The notes below the pieces were generated by a model. It ran no database searches, was not told the origin of the DNA, and saw only the letters and a list, made by a program, of their open reading frames with translations. The translations under genes were made by a program, and so were the position numbers. Positions 1-40,900 of a stretch of 64,000 nucleotides of DNA are shown piece by piece; the stretch's first letter is position 1; each line of letters starts with the position of its first letter. The stretch covers positions 62,744,001 through 62,808,000 of the forward strand of contig CM097887.1 in assembly GCA_044892525.1 (NCBI GenBank). The letters run 5' to 3'. The stretch is from Schmidtea polychroa (taxonomy: Eukaryota).

Positions 1-105
1 TCCAACAATTAATAATCTAAAATTATCAGGAAATACTTTATTATTAAATTTAGATTTATGTCTATTTAAAATTGGTTTCCAAATTATTGGACTTCGTACA
101 TCCAT
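1..105 (-). CDS. Polinton DNA-packaging ATPase (A32/FtsK-HerA family), N-terminus only
   Basis: Not in the ORF track. Manual translation from ATG at 105 gives MDVRSPIIWKPILNRHKSKFNNKVFPDNFRLLIVG, open to the window edge. RLLIVG is the hydrophobic strand that precedes Walker A (GxSGxGKT); the motif itself lies outside the window. Confidence 0.7.
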   Translation of the reverse strand, partial: MDVRSPIIWKPILNRHKSKFNNKVFPDNFRLLIVG

Positions 106-120
106 TTTATTTATTATAAA

Positions 121-732
121 ATGACCTCGAAGAGTTCCTCTACTGAAGAATCTTTGCAAGAATTAATAAATTCAAATAAAAATAAATCAGTAGTAATTGA
201 TGGTAAAAAATATTTTATTGGAAAACATATAAAAGAACAAGTTAGAGCGAAGCTGAAGGGCTCTTCGACTAAAGAAGGCGGCATTCTTCCATTAGCTGCT
301 TTAATACCTGCAATCATTGCCGGACTATCAGGTGCTGCTGGAATAGCTGGAGGAATTGCAACTACAGTTCAAAAAGCTAAAGAATCTCAAAAGACAGACC
401 TAGAAAAAGAAAAACTACAAACTGAAATCGATTCAATGAAGAAGGTAGGGCAAGCTAAGGGAAAAGGCCTCTATCTTAATCCATATGAGGGGACTCTGTC
501 TGAAGGTCAAAAGTCTCAGGGGACTCTGTCCAAGGGAAAGGGTCTCTATCTTGATCCTTATAAGGGTAGAGGTTTAAATGATTTTTAAAAAAATCAAATT
601 TCTACATCTAAATCTTTATCTTCAAAAGATAAAGATGATTTAAAAAAAATATGTAAATCTTTAAAGAATGGATGCCTTTGTAAAACTAAAAATGGTAAAG
701 GTTTATACTTGAAGCCCTTCGAACCCCATTGA
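121..732 (+). pseudogene. Adenovirus pX/mu-like core protein with GKG-LYLxP repeats; internal TAA at 586-588
   Basis: KEGGILPLAALIPAIIAGLSGAAGIAGGIA resembles adenovirus pX MRGGILPLLIPLIAAAIGAVPGIASVA. The frame continues past the TAA as KNQISTSKS...KNGKGLYLKPFEPH* (stop at 732), carrying a third LYLxP repeat. Confidence 0.7.
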
Positions 733-754
733 TACCATTTTTAATACCATAAAA

Positions 755-1600
755 ATGGTATATGAAGAAAGATTAGCACTTTTAAAAAAATTACAATCTG
801 AACAAGATAAATATAATAAAAAAGATACAACTCAACATGCTGAATCTATAATATTAAATGAGGTAATAACACAACAACAGGGGCCAACAATTAAAGCTAT
901 AGAGGGACTTAAAACTATAGAAGCTCCTCTAACCCTTGAACCTAAAGCTATAGAATCTTCTAAAAAGGAATTATCAAGATTAATGGGTTTAAGAAAACGT
1001 AGAAATACTATTGATTTAGAAGAAGATGAATTTCTTTCAAGATTAACACCTCTTAAGACTCCAGTTAATTTTAAAATTAATACATCACTAGCTAAATCAA
1101 TTATACCTACTATAGGTTATGATCCTAGAGGTTTTCAAACAATAACAATTAATAATCAAATATTTTATATATATTTAAATTCAAAAAATAATCCAGCGAT
1201 TATTTCAACAAATACTTTTATGAATAGAGAGCGTGTAGACATTGAACTTTCAGATGGTTTTCATGGATTAATTTCTGGATATCTTCCAGATGATGTTAAG
1301 AAAGAAGAAATTGATAAATATTTAAACTTAATAAAATTAATACATGGTAGTTCTAAAGCAAAACATATTCAAGATTTAAAGAATTATTTAAATAAAAATG
1401 AAAGGGGTTATGTTGTTACAGAGGGTAAGGGGATGCCTGTGGCTGCAAACCCAATCAATCTTTTTATTGAATTAAGAAAACTATTAGCAGCTAAAAAAGC
1501 AGGACATAATAATTTAGATTCTGATATTTTGAAGATTTCTAAAGATTTGTTAAAACAAGGAATAATTTCAAAAGATAAATTTAATAAGTATATAAAATGA
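755..1600 (+). CDS. Conserved Polinton hypothetical protein (281 aa)
   Basis: Intact ORF in the viral cluster. Its C-terminal NPINLFIELRKLLAAKKAGHNN...LLKQGII motif is of a type I recognise from Polinton proteins. Function unknown. Confidence 0.75.
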   Translation: MVYEERLALLKKLQSEQDKYNKKDTTQHAESIILNEVITQQQGPTIKAIEGLKTIEAPLTLEPKAIESSKKELSRLMGLRKRRNTIDLEEDEFLSRLTPLKTPVNFKINTSLAKSIIPTIGYDPRGFQTITINNQIFYIYLNSKNNPAIISTNTFMNRERVDIELSDGFHGLISGYLPDDVKKEEIDKYLNLIKLIHGSSKAKHIQDLKNYLNKNERGYVVTEGKGMPVAANPINLFIELRKLLAAKKAGHNNLDSDILKISKDLLKQGIISKDKFNKYIK

Positions 1601-2082
1601 CTCCTTCAATATTAGATTTTTTAAAAACATTTGGAATAAATGCAAAAACAAATTTTGATTTAAAAGATTATGCAGATTATTTAAATTTAAAAATAAAAAT
1701 ATTAATGAATAATGAATTGAAAGGTCCGAAGGTCAAAGGTCAAAGGGTCACTCCAAAGAATATAATAATCAATTATCAAAATTCAAATGAAAAAGGATCT
1801 CATTGGGTTTGTATATATATGGACGAAGTCCCAATCTACTTTGATTCTTTTGGGATTGAACCCACTAAAGAAGTTGAAGACTATCTGTCCGGAGTAAGCT
1901 CGAAGAGAGACTATACTTTTAATTCTTTACAAGTTCAACCTAATAATACTAAAATATGTGGTATTTTAAGCTTATATGTTTTGTATAGATTGAATAAATC
2001 TCAAGGGACTCTGTCCAAAGGGGACTACTGTTTCACTTCCTTAATCCAAGAAATTTATAATGATTTAAAATCTCTACTATAA
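1597..2082 (+). CDS. Adenain/Ulp1-like (clan CE) cysteine maturation protease
   Basis: GSHW (His), YFDSFG (Asp) and Q...ICG (Gln, Cys) catalytic motifs in the expected order; overlaps the previous stop codon (ATGA). Confidence 0.95.
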   Translation: MTPSILDFLKTFGINAKTNFDLKDYADYLNLKIKILMNNELKGPKVKGQRVTPKNIIINYQNSNEKGSHWVCIYMDEVPIYFDSFGIEPTKEVEDYLSGVSSKRDYTFNSLQVQPNNTKICGILSLYVLYRLNKSQGTLSKGDYCFTSLIQEIYNDLKSLL

Positions 2083-2085
2083 GAA

Positions 2086-2823
2086 ATGGAAGATAATTTA
2101 AAAAAAATGGTAAACATAATGTCAGATAAATATTCAAGAACTTTATCTATAAATTCAAAAGAATCAGACTTTACTATAAATTTTGAAGATTCAATAAAAT
2201 TAGATCAAAATTTAAATTATGAATTAGGTCTATTATGGTTTTGTGCTTATAATACTATTTTTAATATAACTAAAGATATTAACACATTTAGTTATGTAAG
2301 CCCCCCAAAAACGGAGTATAACATAATAATAATAGAACCCGGGGCTTATGAGATAAAAGATTTAAATAATATACTTTCTAAAAAAACAAATGGAGCTATT
2401 GAAATTAAAATAGATTTACCAACTTCAAAATGTATAATGACTTTAAAGAATATAGGACTTAGGTTTCAAAATAATAGTTTCTTTAGAACAATTTTAGGAT
2501 TTACACAAAACCATTATACCACACCTGAAGTTACATCAGAAAATATTATAAAAATAATAAATACAAACACAATAAATATTCATTGCGATTGTATAACAGG
2601 TTCTTATAATAATGGTAAACAAAGTAATATTTTATATTCCTTTCCCTCAAACACAGTTCCTATGGGATATAAAATAGTTGAAAGAATGAATCCTCCAAAT
2701 TATTTACCTTTATGTAGAAAATATATAATGGATATTAATTTTAAAATTCTTAATCAAGAAGGAGAATTGATTGATTTTAATGGAGAAGAGATTTCAATGT
2801 ATTTACATTTGAAACAGGTTTGA
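2086..2823 (+). CDS. Minor capsid protein (penton, single jelly roll)
   Basis: Motifs YNTIFNI, IEPGAYEI, LGF, INIHCDCITGSY.NG, ILYSF, GYKIVE and NQ.G.LIDF.GE are typical of Polinton pentons. Confidence 0.9.
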   Translation: MEDNLKKMVNIMSDKYSRTLSINSKESDFTINFEDSIKLDQNLNYELGLLWFCAYNTIFNITKDINTFSYVSPPKTEYNIIIIEPGAYEIKDLNNILSKKTNGAIEIKIDLPTSKCIMTLKNIGLRFQNNSFFRTILGFTQNHYTTPEVTSENIIKIINTNTINIHCDCITGSYNNGKQSNILYSFPSNTVPMGYKIVERMNPPNYLPLCRKYIMDINFKILNQEGELIDFNGEEISMYLHLKQV

Positions 2824-2847
2824 AGATTCATTTTAAATTATTAATAA

Positions 2848-3780
2848 ATGAGTTCTTATATTCCTTGTAATAGAGGTGGTGGAACAATAAAAACAGGGTT
2901 TAATACAGAAGAAATATTAACTTTAACAGAAAATAAATATATTAATGAAAGAGGTGATTCAATGAAGGGAGATTTAAATTTAAATGGACACAAGATAAAA
3001 GATTTATCTTTACCAATTGATGAAGGTGATGCTGCTAATAAAAATTATACTGATTTAACAACAACAAGAATTGAAAGTTCATTAACAACAAAAATTGATT
3101 CAATGGAATCAAAGCTTAATAATATCGAACAACGATTTAATGATAAATTTGACAAGTTACAAAGTCTGTTAACTGAACAAGTTGTAAAGTTAAATACTAG
3201 TATATTAAATTCTAAAGATAAACAAATTATGAATACTAAATTTAATACAATATATAATATAATAAATGAGATGATTACATCATTTAATAAAAGACTTTCA
3301 AATTTAGAATCTCATACAACACACATTAACACCACACATAGTATTAGAAAAAGAGCTGCTGAATTAGAACAGAATAAAACATTATTACCCCATACATATA
3401 AACATTTTATAGAACCAACTTTAATAACAACAAATAGTAAAGAATGGAGTGTTTTTATGGTTGTAAAGATTATTGATCCTTATTTCTTTTTATTTGATGA
3501 TGATAATGAAAGAATGAAATGGTTTGTGAAATGTGATTATAATAGTAAGTTTGAAAAGGGTGATGTTATAATAAGTGGTTATGATTTAACACATGGATAT
3601 TGGCATGATAAAACTGATTCACATAAAACACATAAAGTTAAAAGTAAGAATATTATTTTTAAAAGCACACTTGTACAATATATAGATTTAATATTTTATG
3701 AAAAAAAGGTTGATGTTGATGAAGTTCGTAAAGCATTGATGGAATTGTATAAAGACATTCTCTCAACAAGAGTCTCTTAA
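2848..3780 (+). CDS. Putative fibre/spike protein
   Basis: N-terminal GDSMKGDLNLNGHKIKDLSLPIDEGDAANKNYTD tail-fibre-like repeat, then a heptad-rich coiled coil and a beta-rich C-terminal domain; lies directly after the penton. Confidence 0.6.
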   Translation: MSSYIPCNRGGGTIKTGFNTEEILTLTENKYINERGDSMKGDLNLNGHKIKDLSLPIDEGDAANKNYTDLTTTRIESSLTTKIDSMESKLNNIEQRFNDKFDKLQSLLTEQVVKLNTSILNSKDKQIMNTKFNTIYNIINEMITSFNKRLSNLESHTTHINTTHSIRKRAAELEQNKTLLPHTYKHFIEPTLITTNSKEWSVFMVVKIIDPYFFLFDDDNERMKWFVKCDYNSKFEKGDVIISGYDLTHGYWHDKTDSHKTHKVKSKNIIFKSTLVQYIDLIFYEKKVDVDEVRKALMELYKDILSTRVS

Positions 3781-3834
3781 AGATATCCGAGTATTGGTAC
3801 CAGATAATAAAATCTTATTTTTTTAATTATTAAA

Positions 3835-4434
3835 ATGGAAGAAGTAAGAGAAGAAAAAGTTTACCCAGAATTGTCATCAGGATATTATTCCCCCAAACCT
3901 TCGGGACCTTCAGCTCCCACAGAACTTGAAATTATGAGAGTAAAAGAATTTAAATCAGAAACCTTACATTTACAAGATTTATTAAAGCATTATAAAAAAA
4001 TTAAAAATAGATGGAATAAAGGGAATACAGTTTTAAAACATATAGGTTATTCTTTAGGATTTGCATCTGCAATATTAACAGTTATTTTACCTATAACTTT
4101 ACCAGTTTTAACACTTGCGCCAGTAATACTTGGAAGTATTTCTGTAGCTGATGGTTTCTTAGCTGAAATAGTTTCATTATCTTATACTTCAAAAAAGAAA
4201 AGTTTATATCGTGAAGTTTGTTTGTCAATAGAATTAGGAATCTCTAAATTATTTTTATTTCAATTAAAAGCTTTGGAAGATGGAATCTTAACTGATGATG
4301 AAATAATGAAATCAAATCAAATAATACAAGATATTAAAAATAATATTAATAGATTAAAAAGTGCTAATGTTATAACTAATGAATATTCTAAAAAAATTAA
4401 ACGGGAGAAATGGTTAAAGAATTCTTATTTATAA
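3835..4434 (+). CDS. Polinton membrane-associated protein (two hydrophobic helices, ALEDGILTDDE motif)
   Basis: Intact 199-aa ORF with VYPEL/PSAP N-terminus, a hydrophobic hairpin and an ALxDGxxxxxE motif of the kind seen in polintovirus proteins. Confidence 0.65.
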   Translation: MEEVREEKVYPELSSGYYSPKPSGPSAPTELEIMRVKEFKSETLHLQDLLKHYKKIKNRWNKGNTVLKHIGYSLGFASAILTVILPITLPVLTLAPVILGSISVADGFLAEIVSLSYTSKKKSLYREVCLSIELGISKLFLFQLKALEDGILTDDEIMKSNQIIQDIKNNINRLKSANVITNEYSKKIKREKWLKNSYL

Positions 4435-4512
4435 AATGGGTGTATTTTTAAAAAAGTAGATCAGGTTGCTATAGTTGCTTAAATTAATTGTCGACATTTT
4501 ATTATTAAAAAA

Positions 4513-7500
4513 TTAAATATCGTTGAAAGCCAACCTTTGAATCATTAATTTATGATCTTTAAATTCTTTATCACTTAGACCTTTTATATATTCAGGATCA
4601 GTATTAAAATATTTAAGTACTAAACATATAGGATTAATAACTTGAGAATATAAAGGCTTCTCGATTTCTCTCTCGGGATAAATGATTTCAACATTATAAA
4701 TATCAAGATCAGTAATCTTTGTATCATATAACTTATTCAACTTTTCTAGATTTTTTATTATCGGTATTAAATTATTTCCTATAGGAAGAGTTGTCTTTAA
4801 ATCACTTAGGATGAATCTCTTATCATCATAATTTGATAATGATACTTTTTGAGATTCTATCAAGTGAATATCATGGTTTTCGCTTTTAATCTGATGCACT
4901 TCATCAATTTTATCTTTATGATTTGGATTCAATGTATCTATATAATCTTGATGAGAAAGACTCTTTGCAACGGATTTCTGTATTCCTTTACATCTGTTAT
5001 CCTTTACAGGTTTTTCTTCTTGTCCCTCTGGTCCTTTAGGGAATATAGGATATTTAAATGAAATAATTTCCTCTTTTTCTGGGGTTTTAAATATAATTTC
5101 TCGGGTTATAAATTCAGGGTTTTAAAATGTTTCGTATGAATATTGTTTAGCACGAATAAATATTCCATTTTCTATAGGAGTAAAAGGTTTTTCATCTTTA
5201 AATGAAAATAATTCTCCAGTTGAATTTATTAAATTTGAAAGTATAGGATTTTCAGCTATATCTCTTTGTAAATCATGAGTTCTTATTGTTAAAAACATTG
5301 AATCTGTATCCATTGCATGCATTGATATATTAGAACCATATATAGGTTGTAAGATGTTATAATATGTTTCATACATTTGTAATGTTGAAAGTTCTAAAAT
5401 TGAAAACCCTATAAATATTGGTTTGTTGTATGTTTTCTCAAAACTCTTTAGTTCTATTGCAGTAAGACTTTCAGAAAATACTTGTGCGTTTTTAAATGTA
5501 GGCTTTCCTAGCATACGATTATAACGCTTAATATCTTTGGCAGTATTAGTTAGGAGTTCAATATGAGTATATTTATCAACATTCTCCATTGTCTTCCCAA
5601 AGACTGAATTGTTTAAAAGTTTATAATTATTATCTTTAAAAAGATTACCTTCTCTTTTTGCAATGTTTCGACATCTAATGTTCTCCTCGATAAAAGCTTT
5701 CATGAATGGCCTCTGTTTAAATCTTATGACACTATGAACTTTTTTTAATATCATACCTCGTGAAAGATAAAATTGGAGGAGTCTATAGTGACAAAGATAA
5801 AACCTTCGATCTGTTTGATCACAAAGAAGTTTCATTGTTAGGGGTTTATCTTGTGAGATTTGCCATTCAGAAAGTTCGTTGATATCAATCTTTCTTCTTA
5901 CAGGAGCTAATGGGAAATATCTTGTTCCTGATTTTATATCATCTGGATATAATAAGTCACATTCTACAAAGTAACCTATTGGAGAATCTTTAGGTGTTGA
6001 AAGTATTTCTTTTATAAGTTCTTTTGATGATTCTATTTCAATGAAATCACCCATTGGTAAATATTGAGTCATAATTCCTGAATATAAAGCTGTTGCATCT
6101 ATATAAAGTATAAATATAGGATTTTTCATTGTTTCTAATATTTCTTTTAATTCCTCATTGTTAATTTTTATATATGGATCAGAGGTCTTTGAAAGCATTC
6201 TGCTAGTAGTTATTGCATTTCTAGCTTTTATTTCTCTATTCCCCATTACTGAAGAGACTCATCCTCTAATGTTTGTTTTAATTAGATTAAACATATCGAG
6301 GTTAGTTAAAAGATCTATAATTTTATCAGCTTCTTCTATATTTGAAGTCCAAATGGTATATAATAAAGTATCCCAAGCTAAAGAGGGTGCTGTTATATAA
6401 TTGTAAGGTTTAAGAACAAAAGATTTTGTAAATTCTTCAAAGCAATCTGCTAGAATATAAACATCCAAGGATAAATACATACTTGTATATTCTCCTAAAG
6501 TTTTACACTTGAATAATTCCCACATTTTATTTGCTCGAGAATATTCTTGATTTGTAATATGATTTTTTTGAAGTTGTGAATAGAAATGTTCTTGGCTAGG
6601 AAGACTTGTTTCATTATATTTTTCAAACGAGTCAACATAGTCATAAGGATATATTCCTTTTGCTAAGCATGTAGGATATTCTTCTGGAGGAATATTATTT
6701 TTTTCCAAGAATTCTCGAGTGATTTTAAAATTTTCTGGTTTCATTGTTTTAGCTATTCCATCTAGAGACATTTGAAGAAAGTTTAACGAGTCTATAAATT
6801 TTAATTTTCCATATTCAACTGATTTATATTTTTCCTTTGTAAGTCCTATAACTTTGAAAGAGTTTTTAGCATTTGCTGCTAAATGTTTAATAAATAGATG
6901 TATGTCATAACCAAAAAGATTATGAAATATAACAGGTACAAATTTAGGAGTATGACAATTAAGATTACAATTTTTATGAGCTGCTCCTCGATAATTATTT
7001 TCCTTTTTTAAATGATCATGATCGAGGACTTTTATATTCGGAGACTCTTCAAATGGTTGTTTACACATCCAACAGTTGGAAGTGTTTTCATATTCTGTTG
7101 TTGTTGATTAGAAATATTTTGAGGATAGTTTGTTTTTAATACTTTAAATATTTCATGTTCTAGATCATTTATACTTTTAGTAAAATGATTCAAGACTTCT
7201 GTTTCTGAAATTCCTCGAAATGTATATTCTCTAGATTCTATGAGTTCAGGATAATTACTTTTAAATAATAATTTATAAGCAGATGGTAATTGTTTAGTTT
7301 TTTTAACACTATTAGGTTTATTCCTTTTTCTTAGAAAGGCTTTCATCCTCTCTGGTTTCATCTTCTCTCCTGAGGAGTTCCAGGAATCCATGAGTTTATT
7401 TTTTTCTATTATTTTTAAATATTGTTTAACCAAATCTTGTTTACGATTTATAAATTCAAAGTCCCCATAAAGCACTCCTACTGTTTGTAGTAAATTTGAA

Positions 7501-8828
7501 AAGTTTTTAAAATACATCTTGGGATAATTAGGCATTTTAATTAAAGCTGGATCATCTTTTTCACAAAATCTTGTATGTTTAATCATAGAGTTTTTAGTTG
7601 TTGAATAATGAAGACATCTTTTACATGTTCCTCCTCCACTAGTTGGATTCTCTGGTGATGTAAAAGCTTGAAAGTTTTTTATTAAAACATAATGTTGATT
7701 ATTTTCTTGTTCCAAGATTAAAAGATATATCTCCCTAGTGTTATCCTGGGGTTCATTATCTCTAACTTCATAATCTGAAATATAAATTGGAATAATTTCT
7801 CTGCAATTAACATGTTTCCCTTTAACACGTTCATAAATATTAATTTTAAGATTATTTAAACTTTCAAATTTTGGAATGTCTTCTAGTTTCATTGGATGTT
7901 TGAATCCTTTGGGAAATATTAATTCATTTTCATATTGTTTGTATTTTGAAACTCTTTGAGGGTTTGATTCTTGAGGGTGTAAATGTGCAAGTATTGACCA
8001 GACGAAACATTTGTTATCATTATTCTGTATGTTTATAACATTTTTAGATTTAAAGGGTGTAGGAATATAAGATTTAGGATTAAGTGGTAATCCTCTCCAA
8101 TAATCAATCACTAAAGTTTGGAAAGAGTTGAATACTAAGTTTGAATCTCCTAATTCATTTTCAACCTCTTCTTGTTTTGCTTCTACTGCTTGAATTATTT
8201 CTTTGATGGTTTTATCAAATCCTTTAGTTGAAAATAAATATTTAAAGGGTATTCCAATTTCAACATCTAAAGGTGTTGTCTTTTCTTCTGCTCCTCGCCA
8301 GTATTTTGCTTTGATTATAATTTTATATTTTATAACATTATACCTTGTCGGTTTATAATTTTTTAAAGCTTCAGTGAAAGAATTTTTAATATTTTTTTTA
8401 TTTTTATTTATATATTCTCCAGGAGTTATAGGTCCATTGATTTCTAATTGAAATTCATCTACATGATTAAAATCATCCCAGTTATATTTTTCTCTTTCAA
8501 CATGATCAGGTTCTCCTTCTGAATGACATTCCTCATCGTCAGAATTTTGTTTTTTATTTTTACATTCTTTTATATGTTCTAAATAATAGAAATTTACTTT
8601 TGTTGAAAAGTTACAGTGAGAACATGTAAATATTTCTCTATTTTTCCCGATACAATTTTCAAAATGTTTATTATATCCAGAATGTAGAAATCTTCCTTTA
8701 CATTTAGGACAAACTTTTGAATTTGTATCATTAAGATTGTTTTCTTTTAATAAATGAGCTTTCGATTTTAAGTGAGAAATTAATCCAGTTTTATTTTTAA
8801 AAACTTTATTACAAATATTACAATTCAT
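4513..8828 (-). pseudogene. polB: Protein-primed DNA polymerase B (pPolB), ~1440 codons, three lesions
   Basis: Four ORF-track pieces join into one gene: YGDFE (ExoI), HNLFGYD (ExoII), KGIYPYDY, DVYILAD (ExoIII), DATALYS (A), KLLNNSVFG (B), MDTDS (C), RAKQY, RCKG, DDKR. Lesions: a frameshift near 7100, TGA at 6259-6261 (RG*VSS, from RGG) and TAA at 5122-5124. Confidence 0.95.
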
Positions 8829-8927
8829 TTTTAGAAAAAAATTTTTTATTGGATATCCTGTTTTGATTTTTTATGTTTTTATATTTATTTTCATAATGTG
8901 ACAGTATAAAAAATAACAAAAATCCAA

Positions 8928-9017
8928 ACCTAGATAGCGCAGTGGGCTAGACCGGCACCGTGGTTCAAATGGATAGCGGTTCAAATCCTAACTGTGGTTA
9001 GTTTTTTTTTTTTTTTT
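8928..9017 (+). ncRNA. Candidate RNA polymerase III small RNA (tRNA-like type-2 promoter with oligo-T terminator)
   Basis: A box TAGCGCAGTGG (8935-8945), B box GGTTCAAATCC (8978-8988), T16 at 9002-9017. It does not fold into a canonical cloverleaf by eye. Confidence 0.6.
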
Positions 9018-9223
9018 AATTTGAAAATAATAGTGTGGGTATCTTAGATTTATATTTTATTTTATTTATTTTTATTTTATTTTATTTTATTTATTTTATT
9101 AATTATTTTATTTTTAAACATAAATATGAAAAAAAAATTATTGAAACGGGTGATGGTGGCGAACCGGTAATTATCGCCACCTGTCTTTCGAACACCCCCG
9201 GATCGATTCTTTAATGTGCACAT

Positions 9224-9511
9224 TTATTTCTCAGTTGTTTTCGGACCTCTTTCGGATTCACTTTCGAATTCATTTGTACTTTCGAGCAGCACGCTTAAAA
9301 CGCCGATGAAATCGTATTCGAGCGAGAAGCGAATAATAAGGTGTGCTGCTATTATCGGATTGATTCTGATGTATGAGTCTGGCCAGCTTGTATATTAGAA
9401 GAGATTTGATAAACGAAAGAGGTTGAAATGATCCGGATCAAAAAAACTGTTGAGGAGACAGTGAAAAAAAAAATACCACTGTCCCCTCAGAGCAGTTTTA
9501 CTATTTTTCAT
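9224..9511 (-). pseudogene. Small Polinton ORF (95 codons) with one internal TAA (9395-9397)
   Basis: Starts in the same TAAATG context as the other viral genes: MKNSKTALRGQWYFFFHC...SNLF*YTSWPDSYIRINP...GPKTTEK*. No recognisable family. Confidence 0.3.
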
Positions 9512-9584
9512 TTATTTTTTAATTTATATAATTTAAAATCAATAATCTGATAAAGATCAACCCCGGAGTTTGATTGCGATCAAA

Positions 9585-9844
9585 AGTAGTGTGTATATAG
9601 CCCTATCCCAAATAGCCCTCTAACTTTTTCATAATGCCATTTTCTTTTCTATTCTCTTTTTAGTTTGAAGCTTTTGAGTTTGAGGCTTTAAAGATTAAGG
9701 GTGGTTATTGTTTAAAATATGGGGTTAAAATACTATAAAAACATAGGTTTTATGTTGTTTTTCTAATGGTTTAAGCGTAATGGAGGTATGTTTTTGTTGG
9801 GAGGGCTGTTTGGGTTGGGTATATATACACACTACTACTACTAC

Positions 9845-9845
<1 letters not shown>
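9585..9845. repeat. Inverted Polinton-type termini 261 bp apart
   Basis: AGTAGTGTGTATATA at 9585-9599 is the exact reverse complement of 9822-9836; weaker homology continues for about 40 nt more. Confidence 0.8.
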
Positions 9846-9877
<32 letters not shown>

Positions 9878-9910
9878 CAACAATACTAATAACGATAATA
9901 ATAATAATAA
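9846..9910. repeat. (AAT)n/(AAC)n microsatellite abutting the Polinton terminus
   Basis: Directly visible simple repeat. Confidence 0.95.
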
Positions 9911-9934
9911 ATGTAAATTAATATTTTTTTAAGA

Positions 9935-10600
9935 TACCTATGGGGGGAGGGGTCATTTATGAAAATGTACAATTTATAGTTTTAAATATAATATAAGTTA
10001 AATATATATTAAGATAAGCTAATTTAGTATATTTAGGTGGTAGTTGATGACTATATGATTTTGAGGGGGGTCATTCATAAAAATTTACAATTTACATTTT
10101 TAAATATAATATAAGTTAAATATGTATTAAAATAAGCTAATTTAGTATATTTAGGTGGTAGGGGATGACTATATGGTTTATGGGGGTCTTTGATGAAAAT
10201 TTTTCAACTATAATTTTAAAGGTAATCTAAGTTAAGTATATATATTAAATAGTCTAAATTAGTGTATCAGGTAGTGGTTAATGGTTATGTGAATTAAGGG
10301 GGGTCATTTATCGAAATTTTCTAAATTTATATCGTAAAGGTAAGGTATTAATGTATTTAGACAACAATTAATGGTTAGGTGACCTGAGGAATTATTAAGG
10401 TGGATAACTGTACATATATAAGTTAATTTATTACTATATATATTGTTCTCGACAAATGTATAGTTTGAGGGGGGTACTTATGAAAAAATGTAAATTATAC
10501 TTTTATAAGTTTCAGATATATAAGTTAGATTGTGAATCTGGATATTTGTTTCGACGATTGCGTAACTTGGGGGGGGGGGTATTTATAAAATATTTACCAC
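9935..10600. repeat. Degenerate tandem repeat, ~116-bp unit, 4 clear and 2 weak copies
   Basis: GGGGTC(A/T)TT recurs near 9950, 10067, 10183 and 10299, with a shared TAAGCTAATTTAGTATATTTAGGTGGTAG in the first units. Confidence 0.85.
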
Positions 10601-10639
10601 TTATTATAGATTATATTTTTATCGCTAACGTAGTTTATA

Positions 10640-11100
10640 TTTTATACTTTTATGACCAAATTCAGATTATAATTTATAGTCTTTCAGCTAATATAAATTT
10701 ATAACTTATATTTTTATGAAATTAAATTTATAGTTTATGTTTTTAAAGCTATTATAATTTTATAATTTATACTTTTGAGGTTATAATTTATATTTTATGA
10801 AGTTAAGTTAAATTTATAGTTTATATTTCTAAAGCTAATATAATTTTATAATTTATACTTTTATGAAGTTAAGATTATAATTTGTACTTTTATAATTAAC
10901 TTAGAGTTATAATTTTTATCGTCAATATAAATTTGTAATTTATAGTTTTAAGAAGTTAAATTTATAATTTATACCTTTATAACTAATCATAATTTATATT
11001 TTGAAGAAATTAAATCTATAAGTATAATTCATATTTTTATGAAATTGAGAGGATAATTTATACTTTTGTGGGTTACGATTTGTATTTTTATAGTTAGTTT
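10640..11100. repeat. AT-rich minisatellite-like array
   Basis: Recurrent TATAATTTATA(C/G)TTTT and GAAGTTAA units. Confidence 0.7.
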
Positions 11101-12729
11101 AGAGTCTATTCAATTTAAAATCCAAGTCTTGCTGATACGCATGTCGAACACCTTTATGAATACTATCACTACTAAATCAATCATTTTTAAAAAATCTTTA
11201 CTTTACACTATTACTAGAAAATTGATTTAAGACTTATAAATCTAGATTCGACAAACGTATAGGTAGAGTTGGTTCTTGATGATATTTAACCGTCTACATT
11301 AATTGTGAATTGTAGAGTTGTGATTAATTTAGGTCTGAGATCTACTCTGTTTATTACCCCTAGTGTATTGTATTGTGATGATTTTGGATGTAGATTTTAA
11401 CTATGTAAGTTATTCATGTATTGAAAGTCGGGAAGAGTGTTTGCTTTCGCGGCCCCACTGTGACCACTACGACAAACCTTACTGTTGTGTGGTAAGTCAA
11501 CCCTTTACGGCTGACCTATAATAAATAGGTAGAGTCAGACGGAGGATTTCATCGACTTAACTCCATGGCAGAACCATGGAGTGGTGCGACCTCCGAATGA
11601 CCTGAACAAAAAAAACTCAATAATATTGATAAGTGCGTGCCAGGCAGTGGCCTTTAATCATTGTGAGCTGCGTACCCATCAATGATAAAGTGCATAGGTG
11701 CAGGGTTGGCTGGGATCTCGCTTCAAAATCAATGATAACCGACGATCTCACTCAAACCTACATTTCTATAGTTAAAAAGAAATAATGAAAACAAGGTTTC
11801 AATAATAATAATTTATAATTCACAATGAAATCGTCCTTACCTACAATATCAGAAAAATCAAAACCAAAAATTTGGCATAAGAGTAAAAATATTCATTTGC
11901 ATTTTTTTTTCTTGAAAAGTGACGAAATGTTTTAGTTTATATAGCCTCTGTTTGACGTGTAAGTATACATGCGTGCATTGATGCAGTAAAACAAATTCAG
12001 ATTATTTTAATTCTCGAACATTCGATTTTTAATTTTTATCGATTTTGATGGCGATTTTTCAGTAAGAATTTTTGTTTTTATTTTTGAAATTTTATTTTCG
12101 AATTATTTTTTATTAAATTTGCGTCCATGATGGATTTCAGCATTTCCAGAACATTCCATGCTAAATTTAATCTATTTCTTATTTTTAAATTGTTTTTTAT
12201 GATTTCTTTTCTAAAATATTTATTTTTTAAACTAAAATATTTATTTTTTATAAATTTTATTGGGTCGTTTGGCGGTCATGATGGATTTCGCCATTTTTAT
12301 GAATTGTTCTGGATTTTTATTAAATATCGATATAATTTTCTTTACGTAAGATTTTATGAAGATTTTCTTTAATTTTCTTTTTTAATTTTTACTAATCGCC
12401 TTTATTCGAATTTGTTTTTTGTTGTTTTATGTCTTTCGGTTATATTTGAGTAAGTTTTCGTGTAATACTTCTTGCTCATGTTTTATTTTATTTTTAATTC
12501 AGATGTTTTATTTTTGGGTATATTATCTCTCTATTATCATTGTTTACTTGGTGTTTTATATATTTTTATTTAAGTAAACTTAATGCTGGGTATGCGTGTT
12601 GTGTACTGACACATTTCGTCCCATTCCTAACTTTGGGTTCAGAAATCAGTTCTAGCCCAACATTATTATAATTTATTGTAAAATCAACTTTCTATAGTAA
12701 GTCTCCAACCAACTCACGATGGAAGAAAT

Positions 12730-17202: not shown

Positions 17203-18648
17203 TAATGATATTACATTTAAGGCCAAAGACCAAATGTGAAGCAGTTCAGAGTATGTTGCGTAATCCAATGCAATGTGTTAGTTATTACGCAAAATGCATT
17301 ACTATTTAAGAGTCATCACTCTGTGTTAATAATTAAATAAATTAAACAAATAAAGACCAGTGTGAGCATGATGAGCGATTGTGAGAAGTTTTTAAAAGAA
17401 TACAAAAAACAGGACTAAGAATAAATCCGGAGAAGTGCGAAATTTACAAAACCAAATTAAAATTCCTTGGTCACACCGTCAGTGAAGATGGAATACTGAT
17501 GGAATAGAAGATCAAGTCAATTACAGAAGCGATGAAACCATAGTGTGCTAAACAACTTCGATCATTTCTTGGCAAATTACTATAGATGATTTGTCAAAGA
17601 TTATGCTAAATTAGCAGCACCCCTACATGCAGCAGCATCAAGATGTGATAAAACAAATTAATGATAAGAAAATTGTGAAAACAGTTTTAGACAACTTAAA
17701 GAAGTCATAACACAAGTTCCTATTCTTGATTTTCCTCGTATAGATCGTAAATTTATTTTGGATACTGATGCCAGTTTTGAAATAAAAGAAGACGGTTCAG
17801 AAATAGTTATCGCATACGATTCAAGAAATCTGACCACCCATGAAAAGGGATACTGCGTAACCAGAAAAGAGTTATTGGCATTGCATGAATATATTTTATA
17901 TTTTAGACAGTATTTATACGTGAAAGAATTCGTGGCTCAAACAGATCACAAAGCTATAGTATTTATGAACACGAAAAAAAAGCAATAAGTTCATAATTTC
18001 AGACATGGATGGCAAATCTATCGGAATGCGATCTCCAATTGAAATACCGGAAAGGTAAAGAACATGCAAACGCAGATGGATTATCAAACATCAAGGGTAA
18101 TTTTTGTGCACAGTGTCAGACACACATGTAAAACATAAACAAGAAGGATCAAGAGTAAGATATATCAATTTGATACAAAAAACACATACAATGTTAGAAA
18201 TTATGGAAGAACAGAAGAAAGGTAAATTGTTCCAGGAAGCGATTGAAATTCTTAGGAATCAGATAGATGTTTGGAAGGAATCTTTTCTAAATAGTTTTTT
18301 ATTCAGATATAAAAATCGGTTAAAGATATCGGATGATATACTTGTATTGGAATCAGACAAAACAAATCTCAAAAACCTATCAATCTAAACTAGTTATTAA
18401 AATACATGAAGATTTATGTCACGTCGGAATTAAGAAACTGTTTCATTATTTGGAAGGGAATTTTTTCTGGCCGAATGGTTAAAGAGATGGCATCAATCTT
18501 AAGAAGGGGACAGTAATGATATAAATTTAGAAGGCAAAGAACAAATGTGAAGCAGTTCAGAATATATTGCGAAATCCAATGCAATGTGTTAGTTATTGCA
18601 CAATATGCATTGATCACCCTGTGTTAATAATAAAATAAATTTTTAGAT
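17203..18648 (+). mobile_element. Internally deleted Ty3/Gypsy LTR retrotransposon
   Basis: Direct repeats of ~140 bp (17203-17341 and 18512-18648) flank the RT C-terminus (INPEKC..FLGH), RNase H (DTDAS..IAYDSR..KELLA..TDHK) and the integrase Zn finger (HEDLCHVG..FWP). A purine-rich tract AAGAAGGGGACAG precedes the second repeat. Confidence 0.85.
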
Positions 18649-30433: not shown

Positions 30434-32252
30434 GGGATCCGGATAAAACACCGAAACAAAAAACTCGAAATTAAAACTTCGAAAACAAAAACACCGAAAA
30501 ATATAATTTCGAAATGCAAAAATATCGAAAACATAAACATCGAAAGCATTTTTATTATTTAAAAAAAAAAATTGTATGTAATTGATGTAACAATTTTAAC
30601 ATTTGTTGACTTTTAAAACTATTAGGCCGCTTGAAGTTCTAAATTATGGGCTAAACCTCTTAAATAATCAAAGTGTTTCGAGTTACATATGACTCTACTA
30701 TAGACTTGATTCTTCTGGCAGTTTCGATATAAATTCTTTTTGATGGTGGTGGATTAATTCCTGACGTTAATTGTTCCAATTTCAATCGAGTCAGGCCTTC
30801 TTCTTTCTTTAAAATTTCAAGAAAACGCCAGAAATTTGGGTTACTTGATGCCATCAATGAACTAAAAGATCGATGCCATCCTTCAATCGAGTTATTTGTT
30901 TTAGGAAGATCATCGATTGATGCTTCGTAACAATTCCAAAGCGATATCGGAACTCTTGGTGATCTTCTTCCTGTTGCAGATCTTGTTGGTCTTCCAATCC
31001 ACTGATCCTCGATATAATCGATAAGTGGACAAAGCAATTGTTCGTTTTCTCTGAAGAAATCAGAGTCTAAAAGTACATTGAAACACTCAATGACATCTTC
31101 TGGCACAAAAGCTAAAGCTGCAAGTTGTCGCAAATATAAAGAAAAATCAGGATCCTGTATATCCTTATATTTGTCGCAAATTGGACTGTTTCTTTGTATT
31201 TCTCTCCATATACATTGAGAAAAATGGAAGAAACAACCACGAATTCTTGTATCGGGGAAGCAATCTTTGATTGAATTAATAATTGCTTGTTCAAAATCCG
31301 ATAACACAGATACTGGTGATAGAGCAGGCTTTATTTGCTTTAATTGGCGAAAAACTTTAGTATAAGTTTCTTGTCTTTTGTTAGGCAAAAGAGCATAAAC
31401 CAAAGGTATCACTGTTTTATCGATAATACAATGTACCGTAAACATCTGAAAAAATAAACTTGGAGCAGTTTTAAATGTTCCATCAACGTATAAATGCGGA
31501 GATGATACTAATGTATCAATTAATCGACTTGTGCTGAACATCACAATTCTATCTGCGCCATCATTTGAATCGTAGATTACAAAATCATCTCCGATTGCAG
31601 TTTTTCTTAAGTTTTCGGGTATAAATAAATCCGAAAGTGATGTCGGCGAAGGCAATATCCCTGATGCTTGATTTCTTTGTCTTCTGATAGTTCTTTTGAT
31701 AGAATCTATCTTCGGCAACTTGCTACAAACAGCTTGAGACGATGTTGACGTTGCCGCTGCAATAATTTGAAGCGGTGTTTCGGTGGAAGTTTTTGAACTT
31801 TCTTTTATTTCAGAATAAAGCTCTTTAGCTTTAATAACGGAAACTTTTGGAACATGATTATGTTCTCCTATTTCTTTTTCCACTTGATTATCAACAGTGT
31901 GGCATCTTCCTTTGCACTTAAATGTCAAATATTCCACACATTTCCAATAAGTTTTTTCGTTATGTTGCCTATCTTTTTGATAAAGAAAACTATTATATAA
32001 AAGTTGATTAACACCTTTTTGACTTTTAATAAATTTAATCTCCATTTTTATAATTGTAATCAATATTTAGCTAATTTAATAATTTAACTATGAAGAAATG
32101 AAAGGAAACGGAAACAATTTAAAGGGACTTTTTATTAATTTTTCGATATTTTGTTTTCGATATTTTTGTTTTCGAAATTTTTTCTATTCGATATTTTATT
32201 TTCGGTGTTTTTGTTTTAGTTTTTTTAATTTTCGGTATTTTGTCCGGGATTC
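30434..32252 (-). mobile_element. Apparently intact autonomous Mutator-like (MULE) DNA transposon, 1819 bp
   Basis: Perfect 9-bp TSD GGTAAGTTT (30425-30433 and 32253-32261); ~110-bp TIRs built of AAAA(C/T)..CGAAA subrepeats. Confidence 0.95.
30660..32063 (-). CDS. MULE transposase with N-terminal FLYWCH domain (467 aa)
   Basis: FIKSQKG..L.YNSFLY..YWKC..C...HNH (FLYWCH); VDGTF, LSDFE, CFFHF and TNNSIEGWH catalytic motifs; no stops. Confidence 0.95.
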   Translation of the reverse strand: MITIIKMEIKFIKSQKGVNQLLYNSFLYQKDRQHNEKTYWKCVEYLTFKCKGRCHTVDNQVEKEIGEHNHVPKVSVIKAKELYSEIKESSKTSTETPLQIIAAATSTSSQAVCSKLPKIDSIKRTIRRQRNQASGILPSPTSLSDLFIPENLRKTAIGDDFVIYDSNDGADRIVMFSTSRLIDTLVSSPHLYVDGTFKTAPSLFFQMFTVHCIIDKTVIPLVYALLPNKRQETYTKVFRQLKQIKPALSPVSVLSDFEQAIINSIKDCFPDTRIRGCFFHFSQCIWREIQRNSPICDKYKDIQDPDFSLYLRQLAALAFVPEDVIECFNVLLDSDFFRENEQLLCPLIDYIEDQWIGRPTRSATGRRSPRVPISLWNCYEASIDDLPKTNNSIEGWHRSFSSLMASSNPNFWRFLEILKKEEGLTRLKLEQLTSGINPPPSKRIYIETARRIKSIVESYVTRNTLII

Positions 32253-34963: not shown

Positions 34964-37900
34964 ATGCAAATCTTTCTAACATTCTCGAAGTCATATTATA
35001 GGATTTTAGTGCATTCATTTAAACTTAAATTTTTTAATTATTATTTTTCTAATAAAGTATATTTTCAACTTTTAAACCATCACAATGTTTGTAAACCGAA
35101 ATTTTTTATTTCTAAATCTTTACCGATTGTATTTTTATCAGCAGTTGCTGTGAACTTAAAAGGTAATTAATTACTAATGTTTAAAAATTTCTAATATGGA
35201 ATAATTCAGAAGATTTACTGTATTATGCTAGAGTTGGGGATTTGAAAAATTTGTCCAAGTATTATATTATAATGTTTTATTTCACTTTAAATTAAACTTT
35301 AATTTAGAGATTTAAAAATTGAGGATTTAGAAAAGCGTCACAAATTTGGTTGGTCCTTATTAATGACAGCTGTTGCCAATAGACAATTGAAGTATTATAA
35401 TTTGTAATGAATCCTTTCAAATTAAATTATTGGAAGGTGTGTGCAATTTTTAATAAGCAAGGGAGCTGATATAAATGCCAAAGACGATTATAGTGGAACA
35501 GTAGAAATTTCCAAAAATTTAAAAATAAACTCCTTAGAAGGTATCGTAAATTTAATATTCTAAATTCTGCTCTGTTATTATCATAGTTATTACTTTAAAT
35601 TTTATTTTAAATATTATTTTAAAGAATTAAATGGCTAAATCGTCAGCATTGTAAATCTGAAATTTTAATAGCATTTCATTACTTATATATGTTCTATTAA
35701 TTTTTGCCTGAAAGGTTCAATTTATTCTTTTGGTGCACTTGATGCTTCGTCGTAAAATCTTTTATTCATGATTCCGTGCCTTTCGCGAAAGCGCAGCAGC
35801 CATCAATCACTTGCTCTGAATTGTATGTTCATACGATTTGCTAATTTCAATGTAGCAGATTTAAATTCAACTGCCCGAACGGGAACCCCACTAGAACGTT
35901 GTTAGCCATACCATTTTAAGATTGGTTGAAGTTTCACAAGCCAATTTCATTCGTTTTCTGGGATGCCATATTGTTCACATATACGAGACGCAGACATTCC
36001 AGACTCCAACTTTTGTATCATTTTTGATCGATCGTTTTGGATTGGTTCTTTACCGTTTGTCCATATTGTAAGGGTAGGATTGCGAAAATTTGCATTTATT
36101 TACGTATTTATTAAATTTATTAAATGCTTTCATTCACTTCGAGTTAATAAGTTAAACTGATGTAGAGTTGCAAGCACTAGTAGGCTGTGTCGAAACCTAC
36201 GCGTTATTATATCAGGGAATCCCCTAATACACTATCACTCTGACTAGGTGCAGTCTTCGAGCAGGACAGCATTATGTCTTAAATTCTAGTGGTAGACCTA
36301 TAATGCAATGGCTAGCAGTTGCCAATTTCGCTGTATAAATGAAAATTGTTTAAATGCGGCGACACTTGAATTTAAGCATGTATAATATTAACAGGACGTT
36401 TTTAAAAATTTTTACATTTGACTGGATTTTTTGTCCATTATATCCGAAGTTTTTTAAATATAGGACCGTTAAATCGAAGTTTTACTGTACTGAAATATTT
36501 CTTGACTCTAGTTTGAGAAGTAATTCCATAGGCTCTCAAACCAAGGGAACTAATAAAAACAAATATAGAACAGCATTTCAATATATTTCAATATGTATTT
36601 AATTCCGTTTTAAACTGTCCCATCAGAATTATACATCTATACGCCGGGTTGCATTACTGTGAGGGATGGAATCAGTAACACAGTAAAGTTACAACACCAT
36701 GGGAATTGATCCCATATAATCACAATGCTATAAATGTCTCTATTCTGGTATTGAGCATCAATGAGAGTATTATCGGCACTCCAAAAAGTAACAATGAATA
36801 CCTTGAAATTGGGAAAACACAGTAAATAAATGCCCATTGGTTTAACATATAATTTCAGGACATAACATTTTGACATGTAAAATGAATACAGTGCCTAAAA
36901 TAAAAATTTATTCCATTTATATAACACGACGCTTATTGACTATTGGAACTTTTCTATTACTCATTTTGCACCAGTAATTTACTTTAAACTTTAGAATCTA
37001 AAGTGTAAATCCCACACCGTTTATCGTCATATTTGTATATTCTAAGTGCAACATTATTTAGCAGAAATAATCAAACGAGAAGTGTAATAAAACCAATTTA
37101 AAACAATCTCAAATAACCAATTTTACTCAGTGCATTCGATTTTTTACAGATAGCTTTAGTTTTAGGAAGTAATCTATTAATTCCGAAATATTTGCTGGTC
37201 TGTGTTTTTGTTAACAATACATCAATTCCATTTTATTTAAGATTCAATTCTTAGTTGAGTAATTTTTAAAAAATGGATTGTTTGTATTTTTGTATTTTGG
37301 TTTCAAGTCTAAGATATGGAAATTTTCATTAAACTCCGATTTGCATACCCTACCTTTTAAAAGATGAACAGAAACAATTCTATTGTAAAAAATGTTATAT
37401 TTTGATTTGCAAATTCTACTTTGAAGTTCCTTTTAATTCCCTTATGATGCTTTGGAATAGCATTCAAGCGAGCCCTTCAAATTAAATGTAATCTTGAAAA
37501 GATCGTTTCAACTTTTTTTTTATCGTTTTTGAACTTTTTAGGTTTTATCAGATTTAAGAACATTTATCAGAATTATATATTCATAAATAATTCTAACTAA
37601 CAAATAGAAAACTTTTTCATAAGATAAAGTTCAGAAAAAGTGATATTTTCTATAATTAATATTTTTCATTATTATCTGGAAATAAAAATGGAAAATGAGC
37701 TCAATTTTTTAATTGAAAGAATCGAAATTCGATTATTTATAATTTTATAAATAATTCATTCAAATTAAAAATTGAAAGGCTTCACTATTTTCTACGATAA
37801 AAATATCTTGATTTCGTTTCTTCGCAAAATAGCTTTATTACGTCGACATTTATTACGTCATGATAAGGATTCCTTATCAAAAATTGTTTGAATTGATGAA

Positions 37901-40900
37901 TTCATTCTAGTTAATTTTAGATTTATTGTCAAAAAATATTTATTACTATTCTTATCTATTGGCTGCCTTGAAATCTTATTGAAAGCAGCGATTTTAGCTT
38001 TCTGGTCATGAAATACTTTGCCAAAGATTATTTTATCGATTAGGCCATCTAAAAAAAATTAACTTACAATATAAAAATTTTTCTTTAATTTTTTTAAACC
38101 TACCGATTTTTTCATATAATTTGGTTTCTAGTATCAACCTTTCTCCTGCAATTATTTATAAGTGACCATTTGAGATTGTCATATAAAATAAAATAGGATA
38201 TTAAAATATTATTTATAACAATAATAATAATAATATTAAATATTATTAATTCAAATATCTCTAACTATAAAAATTTGTCAGTTGATTACATACGGAAAAA
38301 CGAATTCAGTCCTGAATTCAATACCAGGGCCAATTTCCAAGGCTGTACGGCATTGCATTATTCAGTTCTGTTGGATGATTATGAAATGACATCATTGTTA
38401 TTGAATAATAGTAATGAGTTCGTTGGTGAACTTACCGATTTGATAACGTAATTCCAGACGCGGATCCAACTATTGAAAATGATAAAGGCTATACTCCTAT
38501 ACAATACGCTGTATCAGATTCCTTAAGAAAACTTTTGCTATCCAAACAAGAACAGGTTTTCCAAATCATATAAAAATATTTTATAATTAAATCTTTTTAT
38601 TTGTAAATAATCATTTAAAATGAATTTTAAAATTATCCATACGGGGATTTGGCCCGGTTATCGTTATAAGTTTCGCTATTAATTGGAATATTATAAAATA
38701 TGACCACATGACAGTTTCATATAATTGCTATACATTTAATTATAATATTAAAAATCACTACTTAAAGATACGTTTTACGATATATTAAGAAAGGTAGGAT
38801 AGAAAAAACTAGATATTATAGATTTATTAAATAAATTACAAAATTTTATTATTATGAAAACTTTTTTTCCAATTTCACCAATTTTTTCCATTGAATTTTT
38901 TAAAAACAGAGCTTGAAGACTATAAATCAGTAATTTATCGATGTTTTTTGATACTCACGAATTTTCGACACTGCTTTTTTTCCTTTCGCTTGAAAAAGGC
39001 AGTGCCGAAAATTCGTGAATATCAAAAAAAATCGATATATTACTGATTTATAGTCTTCAAACTCTCTTTAAAAAAATTTAATTATTAAAAATTTTTTTAA
39101 TTTATGAATATTGTGAATAATTAATGAATATTGTCGACCAAAGCAATTGACCAATATATTTTTAAATCTTAAAATTTTGTTAATTAAAATTTATCCTACC
39201 AGACGAGTGTAGGAAAACTGTCAAAATATATCGTAAAACGTATATTAAGTGGTGTTTTCTAATTATTGTTGAATTATATTGTCTGCTTTGTTAAATTAGC
39301 CAATAGCAGTCAAATAAATGCATGCATTTGAGATTTTACTATAAATATCAAGTTACCTGAAAATCATTATTAAAAAATTGAAATTGAGTAACTTCATTTT
39401 CACGTAAATGGTGACTCACCTCAACTGGTGTGCACACCAACGTGAATTATAGAGGTTACTAAATTTCGGAATTGGGTGTATCTTTAATGATATCATTTAA
39501 TGATATTGATGAAATAGTTATTCATAGGGTTTATAAGTTAATAATTTTTATAAACTAAATATATTTTTGTAACTAAACAGTACTTAACAGAAGTAGTGGG
39601 AAATTATTTTGAAAGAATATTATCCTTATTTCAGAGCACAAATTAAAAAGTCAACTAGGCATCCAATATGTTGTTAATCAATAAAGTTTCANNNNNNNNN
39701 NNNNNNNNNNNNNNNNNNNNNNNNNNNNNNNNNNNNNNNNNNNNNNNNNNNNNNNNNNNNNNNNNNNNNNNNNNNNNNNNNNNNNNNNNNNNNNNNNNNN
39801 NNNNNNNNNNNNNNNNNNNNNNNNNNNNNNNNNNGTCATGAAATATAGGTAAATATTAATTACTCTCCTCTACCGACTCCCTCATTTCGCATATCGAATT
39901 AGGTATACCTATTTTTACCCGAAAATCTAGTGTTAAATGCTCAAACAATATTATATTCAAATTCTAAAAATAATTTAATATTGAATAATTAAAAAATTTA
40001 TCATTTTTGAATTGTTATATCTATAAAATTATAAAATAAGAAATAGTTCAAAATATATATTCCAATAAATAAGTATTATTGAAACAATTTTAAATTATGT
40101 TAACAATAAAAACTTTTGAATTATAATATATGGATTAAATATTAATTTAATCCATATAACATTAATACTCCATGACTCAAATCTGTAAATTATTATAAGA
40201 TAATTGAAATTTTTTTTGAAATGAGTTTAAGAAAAGAAACTTATGTTAAATTTTTAATTTAATGACAATTAAAAACATCAACTATATTGAAAATTATAAT
40301 GTGAAAATGACATTTTGAACTGAAAATTTTGCATTTTTAAATAATTGATAGATAGAAAAACCTGTAAGTTTCATGATTTCAGTGTTCATCATTCGATAGT
40401 TTTTACTGTTCCAGGCAAACATTAGGTAAACAATGATTTTCTTTTTTATAGTTAGTATCCTTATACAATTCTAAAATAATTCTTTATTTCCTACTATTAG
40501 TCGAGACCACCGACACAGATGGTTGTAATGAACTCTATAGGTTTTTACCTTAAGTATACTTAAAATAAAGAAAACGATGTTAAGTTTCACTAGAATAGTA
40601 ATCTTTATATCCAAATTGACTTACTATTAAAATTAGAAGAAGGCTAATATTTGTAGGTTAAATATTTTAATTCTGTATAATTTTCTCTGTCTGAATACTG
40701 TCAACTGGTTGTATGTATAAATGAATAAATATACAACAATAATACAAACAAAACATGGTTATTAATCTAAATTTCTTTAGTTTTTGAAATATAAAGCAGA
40801 AAAGGAATTAGAAGAACGACGCAGATTTCCTTTGGAACATCGTTTAAGAAAGCACATTGTTGGCCAGGAAGCAGCTATTGATCTAGTTGCAGCTAGTACA

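Follow-up and report, generated by a model that had tools for sequence, protein, structure and literature searches.

A young, broken Polinton of Schmidtea polychroa with host DNA mirrored across its ends

Polintons, or Mavericks, are elements of 15 kb that encode pPolB, an rve integrase, an A32-like ATPase, a protease, a double jelly-roll (DJR) major capsid protein (MCP) and a penton, and that carry terminal inverted repeats (TIRs) of less than 1.5 kb and a 6-bp target-site duplication (TSD); most copies are decayed, and the MCP and ATPase are under purifying selection (PMC11161782, PMC10748475, PMC8097293). We analyzed a 64,000-nucleotide stretch of the Schmidtea polychroa genome (GCA_044892525.1, contig CM097887.1, positions 62,744,001 to 62,808,000 of the forward strand; hereafter the window), which begins inside a member of a family sharing these features. 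An earlier reading of the window (the original prediction) had named the element a Polinton. This was borne out by the recovery of virion genes, pPolB, integrase and TIRs, and its placement among Polintons/Mavericks, class Polintoviricetes, is practically certain. The family departs from the described systems in a terminal cassette that contains an inverted inner copy of the terminus and, in this copy and a few of its sisters, in a mirrored host flank that stands in place of the TSD.

The element itself is a standard Polinton from a host group in which Polintons are already on record: they are piRNA targets in Schmidtea (PMC8532177), and an expansion of DNA/Maverick elements is described in Dugesia (10.64898/2025.12.11.693146). 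Unlike the present analysis, the accessible parts of both reports contain neither gene maps nor descriptions of end structures or flank rearrangements. Together with our count of ~1,600-1,900 related copies, these reports leave the idea of a single, poorly catalogued integration unsupported. Although counting methods differ, that figure compares with a median of 8 and a maximum of 287 copies in vertebrates (PMC8097293) and with 388 pPolB2 copies in Trichomonas (PMC10748475). Adintoviruses (Alpha and Beta; Starrett et al., PMC8502044) likewise combine an animal host, adenovirus-like virion genes, an integrase, a PLA2-like domain and a pX-like protein; the text and one supplement file of that paper name no planarian. 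Unlike the Alpha class, the present family has PLA2 in one frame with the integrase, apart from the pX-like open reading frame (ORF), rather than a PLA2X arrangement, and its match to PF03175 is weak. The Beta class is marked by a divergent PolB, less than 30% identical to the PF03175 type, and by GasderminX/cupiennin accessory genes; the weak match may be compatible with the first of these traits. No gasdermin-like ORF was seen, and a Pfam profile search of the element ORFs gave no gasdermin family match. Neither adintovirus class fits cleanly.

Extension beyond the left edge of the window, the check proposed with the original prediction, revealed the DJR MCP, the rve integrase and the left TIR; the refuting outcome named there, a left flank devoid of capsid gene, integrase or TIR, did not materialize. 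The left end of the Polinton lies 9,799 bp to the left of the window (L011:202), and its right end lies at 9836 and not at 9845 as first placed, the extra ACT units being flank; family members begin and end AGTAGTGTG...CACACTACT. The element is 19,635 bp long with an inserted 4.7-kb Gypsy and ~14.9 kb without it, as in its sisters. A 6-bp TSD had been expected at the locus and is absent. Instead, the inverted repeat runs past the terminus to a total of 3,302 bp, and 2,354 bp of the right host flank reappears in inverted orientation to the left of the element. That the true TIR is simply longer, at 3.3 kb, was ruled out, as sisters stop at AGTAGT and the outer 2.35 kb belongs to a long terminal repeat (LTR) family.

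The mirrored DNA belongs to the 5.3-kb LTR of a giant retroelement. Its native position is on the right, because there the LTR continues to its natural end at 12663. On the left, near 62,731,852 of G000:C3, the mirror gives way at a 2-bp AT overlap to an unrelated repeat that is truncated internally, and the remaining half of the LTR was not found within 18 kb further left. The possibility that the left neighbor is a transposon ending at the junction was discarded, since all seven relatives compared continue with the same sequence. Over 2,354 bp the two arms differ by three substitutions and one 1-bp indel. The substitutions fall into two events, a dinucleotide and a single change, both private to the right arm; the left arm keeps the LTR-family allele, which was found in eight other matches at one site (one of them the left arm) and in five at the second. 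None of the contigs listed from five Logan runs bridges the left junction, and the side with the unique allele was without cover at 98% likeness, hence uninformative.

The arrangement recurs in the family. We assembled three sets of sisters with both ends available. In the first, 24 of 50 sisters (taken with their flanks from the 150 copies listed, with preference for those ranked highest), 21 had exact TSDs, two were mirrored and one was neither; 16 rows in which a terminus had been matched to its own inner copy were left out of the count, and ten of the 50 copies had no row. A second set of 20 further pairs, one probably a segmental duplicate of an earlier copy, yielded 18 exact TSDs, one with a single mismatch and one mirrored case, and all six pairs of a third set were exact. 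Overall, 45 of the 50 two-ended sisters carry an exact 6-bp TSD, one carries a TSD with one mismatch, one has none and three are mirrored (3/50, 95% CI 1.3-16.5%), in addition to the copy studied here. In every mirrored case the symmetry is centered on the element and passes through the exact terminus. One sister (c13) has ~500 bp mirrored, followed by a 245-bp piece of TIR. Another (L135/136) sits in the reverse transcriptase gene of a Gypsy element, of whose 3' half 2.2-2.4 kb is mirrored; ~590 bp of filler follows the mirror, and ~700 bp of the target Gypsy has been lost. In the third (c02), 320 bp is mirrored at 99% identity and then ~570 bp at 81%, and this tract represents the end of a second AGTAGT element, which has a 6-bp duplication of its own. 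A further candidate (c31) was rejected as a microsatellite match. Over the outer 600 bp, the two TIRs show no substitutions in the three copies with mirrored host DNA, and many normal copies are equally alike, with 0-1 differences. Elsewhere in the assembly (L221/L222, G000:C1:47596119-47611140), two outward-facing termini lie 12 kb apart with flanks mirrored over at least 1.4 kb, one side having only 630 bp of TIR.

The copy belongs to a very large Polinton family; it is young and no longer intact. A penton search of the 781-Mb assembly gave 2,963 candidates, of which 150 were scored, at 91-100% identity. Exact 30-mers from the MCP, the penton and the polymerase type of this copy occur 1,922, 1,607 and 354 times, respectively, against 0 control matches, and two terminal patterns match 352 and 195 exact ends. 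The recent insertion claimed earlier is supported by 0.20% private substitutions in the body of this copy (median 0.26% among the 50 sisters); the nearest of these sisters is 0.63% away. Near-full open frames were present in 26 of the 50 sisters for the MCP, the PLA2-integrase and the ATPase alike, in 34 for the pX-like ORF, 28 for the PW-like ORF, 28 for the protease, 31 for the fibre-like ORF and 36 for the membrane ORF, and in 46 for the penton, which is the gene by which the sisters were selected. Pairwise dN/dS between sublineages was 0.18 for the MCP, 0.12 for the ATPase, 0.25 for the integrase, 0.3-0.4 for the protease, 0.2-0.3 for the membrane ORF and ~0.3 for pPolB. The modules are mosaic: among 20 copies taken from the first 100 listed penton-motif matches, six have a polymerase core only 65-68% identical to that of the copy studied here, yet share the common virion module, their pentons being 81-82% identical, as in copies with a 90% identical polymerase. 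Nematode Polinton lineages also combine a common virion module with differing polymerases through pPolB exchange (PMC10748475); here, the polymerases are much closer and the exchange lies inside one genome. Polintons nested in Polintons, of the same family or of ~80% relatives, were seen at L019/L020, L083/L084, L071 and L095/L096, and this group includes one recombinant whose polymerase half is ~72% identical.

A racket model has been proposed for Polintons. We consider it likely that the mirrored flank arose by a template switch between the terminal repeats followed by host end-joining, in a young Polinton that is now broken. Under this view, pPolB would synthesize family copies by protein priming and the rve integrase would insert them, in many cases probably with proteins supplied by other copies. 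In about one copy in 15, one end would be left free or broken; it would anneal to the opposite TIR, be extended through the intact junction into 0.3-2.4 kb of host DNA and then be attached to the far host end at the cost of the original flank. Each of the four cases requires a TIR-to-TIR switch, copying across an intact junction and a second joining event that uses microhomology or homology. The far junctions, with the TIR piece in c13, the filler and loss at L135/136 and the truncated repeat at the present locus, suggest products of repair. For protein-primed elements, a TIR panhandle has been proposed as the origin (PMC4046053). Products of the same class come from one-ended retroviral integration, in which a free end primes on nearby viral or host DNA and gives deletions, duplications and inversions of the flank beside one normal junction (PMC5041404). 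The retroviral products differ in that inversions are the rarer outcome and the viral end is often truncated, whereas here the second terminus is complete and the mirror exact, because long inverted repeats supply them.

Within this account the switch could fall at either of two times. We give not quite an even chance to its having occurred during one-ended integration, and regard later host repair, for example at a stalled host fork, as a tentative but serious possibility. The arms have diverged by 0.13%, and the three substitutions seen compare with up to 9.4 expected from the 0.20% of the body (P 0.016), which speaks for a mirror younger than the insertion and against our reading. The timing nevertheless stays undecided, because the private-substitution yardstick overstates the age of the element and because many normal copies have TIRs as alike. 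Other observations also weigh against this explanation. Mirrored cases number only four, and their rate was counted in Polinton copies alone; inverted and tandem local duplications are common in the assembly, L221/L222 included. The c02 composite occurs at one locus only in the assembly and so has not spread, which also disposes of it as a mobile family. The intact sisters sought at the suggestion of the original prediction did not appear: no sister among the 50 keeps all ten frames open, and a full-length pPolB occurs in only three. Finally, dN/dS is weak for the penton (~0.6), the fibre-like ORF (0.65) and the PW-like ORF (0.55-0.9), and all dN/dS values come from open frames only and from non-independent pairs.

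The later-repair branch of this account can also be stated alone, as a purely host process unrelated to integration, in which, long after a normal insertion with TSD, a fork collapses in one TIR, restarts on the other, copies the flank backwards and then switches by microhomology to distant DNA, the Polinton providing nothing more than inverted repeats. We rate this as possible, though somewhat less than an even prospect. Template switching at inverted repeats is known from other genomes under the DUP-TRP/INV-DUP and origin-dependent inverted-repeat amplification (ODIRA) models and would give the same structure, and an outward-facing mirror between two ends does exist at L221/L222. Planarian genomes rearrange fast (PMC11410931, the accessible text of which names neither Polinton nor Maverick), and the arms here are at least as young as the element, perhaps younger. 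However, normal young copies show equally small TIR differences, so arm identity gives no later date, and a rate of ~6% seems high for a chance accident in a family so young. A trivial origin is improbable, although a 930-bp TIR repeat with hundreds of near-identical ends in the genome, in an assembly where local duplicates are frequent, could invite a TIR-to-TIR crossing or a merging of haplotypes that wrote one flank twice. Such an artefact would be expected to leave neither the dinucleotide and single substitution private to one arm, nor the templated filler and deletions at the far junctions, nor the clean 6-bp duplication outside the mirror in c02, and 45 of the 50 sisters were assembled with exact TSDs. 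It is more improbable still that an element was excised together with one flank, restored its other end through panhandle copying and then integrated as an enlarged unit. This would suit c02, whose outer ends are AGTAGT termini with a TSD; at the present locus, in c13 and at L135/136 the outer ends have neither terminus nor TSD, and one side runs into the native target.

A template switch between the terminal repeats, our preferred explanation, would make mirrored flanks a countable and datable footprint of pairing between element ends. Such pairing is proposed by replication models, and no demonstration of it was found in the literature searched. Those searches also found no published report of mirrored flanks, with subscription papers, Repbase and preprint supplements outside their scope. 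A bolder version, which we regard as rather unlikely, holds that Polinton integration is often one-ended, with the free end, in several per cent of events, forming a panhandle with the integrated end and copying through it into host DNA, which leaves element-centered palindromes and deletions. If true, Polintons, with ~1,900 copies, would contribute to structural change in planarian genomes, the mirrors would provide the first genomic trace of the panhandle intermediate that has been proposed, and the uptake of new outer segments by TIRs, as in the nested 252-bp cassette or in c02, wrapped in the ends of another element, would be explained. This is a young family of very large size, which would account for as much as ~3-4% of the assembly were most of the 1,900 capsid-bearing copies close to full length. 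Its host is likely to be tractable in the laboratory, so that virion production and integration are open to study in untreated animals and existing data.

The TIRs have AGT-repeat ends (AGTAGT...ACTACT), and the outer 670 bp of the right TIR shows no substitutions relative to the left. Each TIR opens with a 252-bp cassette bounded by the true terminus and an inner copy of 36 nt, 86% complementary to it, and this cassette is predicted to fold into a hairpin (z -6.1 versus shuffles). The sequence behind the cassette differs between subfamilies. A parvovirus-like flip-flop of the terminal hairpin found no support, as the flipped loop was seen at none of the ends tallied, although some outer arms of the cassette bear the variant of the inner arm. 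Mini elements with both termini also exist, of ~230 bp (L226:1501-1732, G000:C1:55370660) and ~185 bp (G000:C1:74076379-74076563); the 232-bp element is almost perfectly palindromic and carries a 6-bp duplication, in keeping with an end fold-back. At L124-L127 (G000:C137, C76), long tandem arrays are built of a 1,201-bp unit comprising ~890 bp of family TIR and ~310 bp of other DNA, and the array on C76 runs straight into a Polinton body; these arrays are a satellite born of a Polinton end. Fragments of a different Polinton-type family lie in the flanks at L113 and L135 (ATPase-like frames with a GPSGSGKT loop), with a capsid-like frame in L115, all near unrelated loci, which suggests several abundant Polinton-type families.

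Table 1 Features of the Polinton and of its surroundings in the window
Feature	Position	Strand	Basis or remark
Polinton, right two thirds	1..9836	.	Ends, gene set, left-flank extension
A32-like packaging ATPase, 5' end	1..105	-	Frame runs on left of window
pX-like core protein gene	121..732 (end approximate)	+	One internal stop
Conserved ORF, function unassigned	755..1600	+	Open; no Pfam match above cut-off
Likely adenain-like cysteine protease	1597..2082	+	Open; Atlas neighbors
Penton, single jelly-roll minor capsid protein	2086..2823	+	Open; fold match
Coiled-coil fibre-like ORF, label unproven	2848..3780	+	ORF
ORF with hydrophobic central stretch, family unnamed	3835..4434	+	Open
pPolB	4513..8828	-	PF03175
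Right TIR, ~930 bp, ending CACACTACT	8903..9836	.	Comparison with left TIR
252-bp terminal cassette	9585..9836	.	Between true terminus and inverted inner copy of terminus
Mirrored host flank	9837..12190	.	Part of 5.3-kb LTR of giant retroelement
Rest of LTR to its natural end	12191..12663	.	Native side
Host ankyrin-CLPB gene	35321-46385		Introns 44-61 nt and kb-long

The genes of the element are listed with the other features of the window in Table 1. To the left of the window lie the left TIR, a 109-aa ORF, the MCP (DJR, PF21738, E 1e-24), the PLA2-like/integrase gene and most of the ATPase. The integrase matches rve (PF00665, E 3e-11) and the PLA2-like domain PF08398; in sisters the two are fused in one frame of 454-473 aa. 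The predicted ATPase start proved correct: its P-loop spans the window edge and a sister frame matches Pox_A32 (E 1e-7), while a PDB sequence search gave no match. The 3' part of the gene is split by the Gypsy (L011:4675-9377, 4.7 kb), which has identical 152-bp LTRs and a 5-bp duplication. This Gypsy is young, its LTRs end AGT...ACT, and relatives of 65-99% identity recur beside other Polinton copies and at 17364-18213 of the window.

For the pX-like ORF, the single lesion was found as predicted; its identity is suggested by a weak Adeno_PX match (E 0.045), and we take it to be of the PZ type. The following ORF is presumably of the PW type. The protease agrees with its Atlas neighbors (score 0.97, with Peptidase_C5 in 12-38% of members), having no Pfam match and no PDB sequence match. 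The penton, as predicted, was recognized by fold: a model from a 111-row alignment reached pLDDT 96 (34 from a single sequence) and matched the mavirus penton best (E 7e-11), adenovirus penton bases also being matched. The proposed fibre and membrane-protein labels found no family match above the curated cut-off. pPolB carries the three lesions first noted, one frameshift and two stops, and matches PF03175 weakly (E 8e-10, 38.6 bits); it has 1,606 longer homologues at E<=1e-30, of which those named are mollusc DNA polymerases. Cys and His motifs seen by eye in its N-terminal frame may be those of TP and vOTU domains.

The statement that most structural ORFs are intact stands for the protease, the penton, the PW-type ORF and the hydrophobic ORF. 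The fibre-like ORF is ~14 aa shorter at its C-terminus than in most sisters, and two further lesions lie left of the window, a break between the PLA2 and integrase parts and the Gypsy insertion in the ATPase. A broken small terminal ORF was not found; what lies at the inner end of the right TIR is just the tail of the 109-aa ORF of the left end. A short A/T motif, (T)ATAAAA or near, directly precedes the ATG of each virion-module gene (121, 755, 1597, 2086, 2848, 3835; L011:1905), and may be merely an AT-rich start context; the element showed no ORF resembling TBP.

The assembly is AT-rich, and four chromosome-scale contigs hold ~700 Mb of it. The tiny introns noted earlier are present in the CLPB gene (48, 44, 45 and 61 nt), although other exons of this gene lie kilobases apart. 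At 781 Mb the assembly far exceeds myxozoan genomes in size, and the suggestion of a myxozoan-like host found no support: CLPB is sister to seven parasitic flatworm rows (SH-aLRT 92) in a tree of 29 rows that included no cnidarians and in which one 20-aa exon was in the wrong frame. Taken with the size and AT content of the assembly, its four chromosomes and its giant LTR elements, this placement makes a free-living planarian very likely as the host. The 5.3-kb LTR family has 3,334 candidates and belongs to a giant retroelement with a 1,571-aa gag-bearing frame and a period of ~16 kb (window 9837-12663; L113-L118); giant LTR elements are described for planarians (PMC6431247), and this one may be Burro-like, judging by its size. 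At 30660-32066, the window also contains an open 468-aa FLYWCH-MULE transposase.

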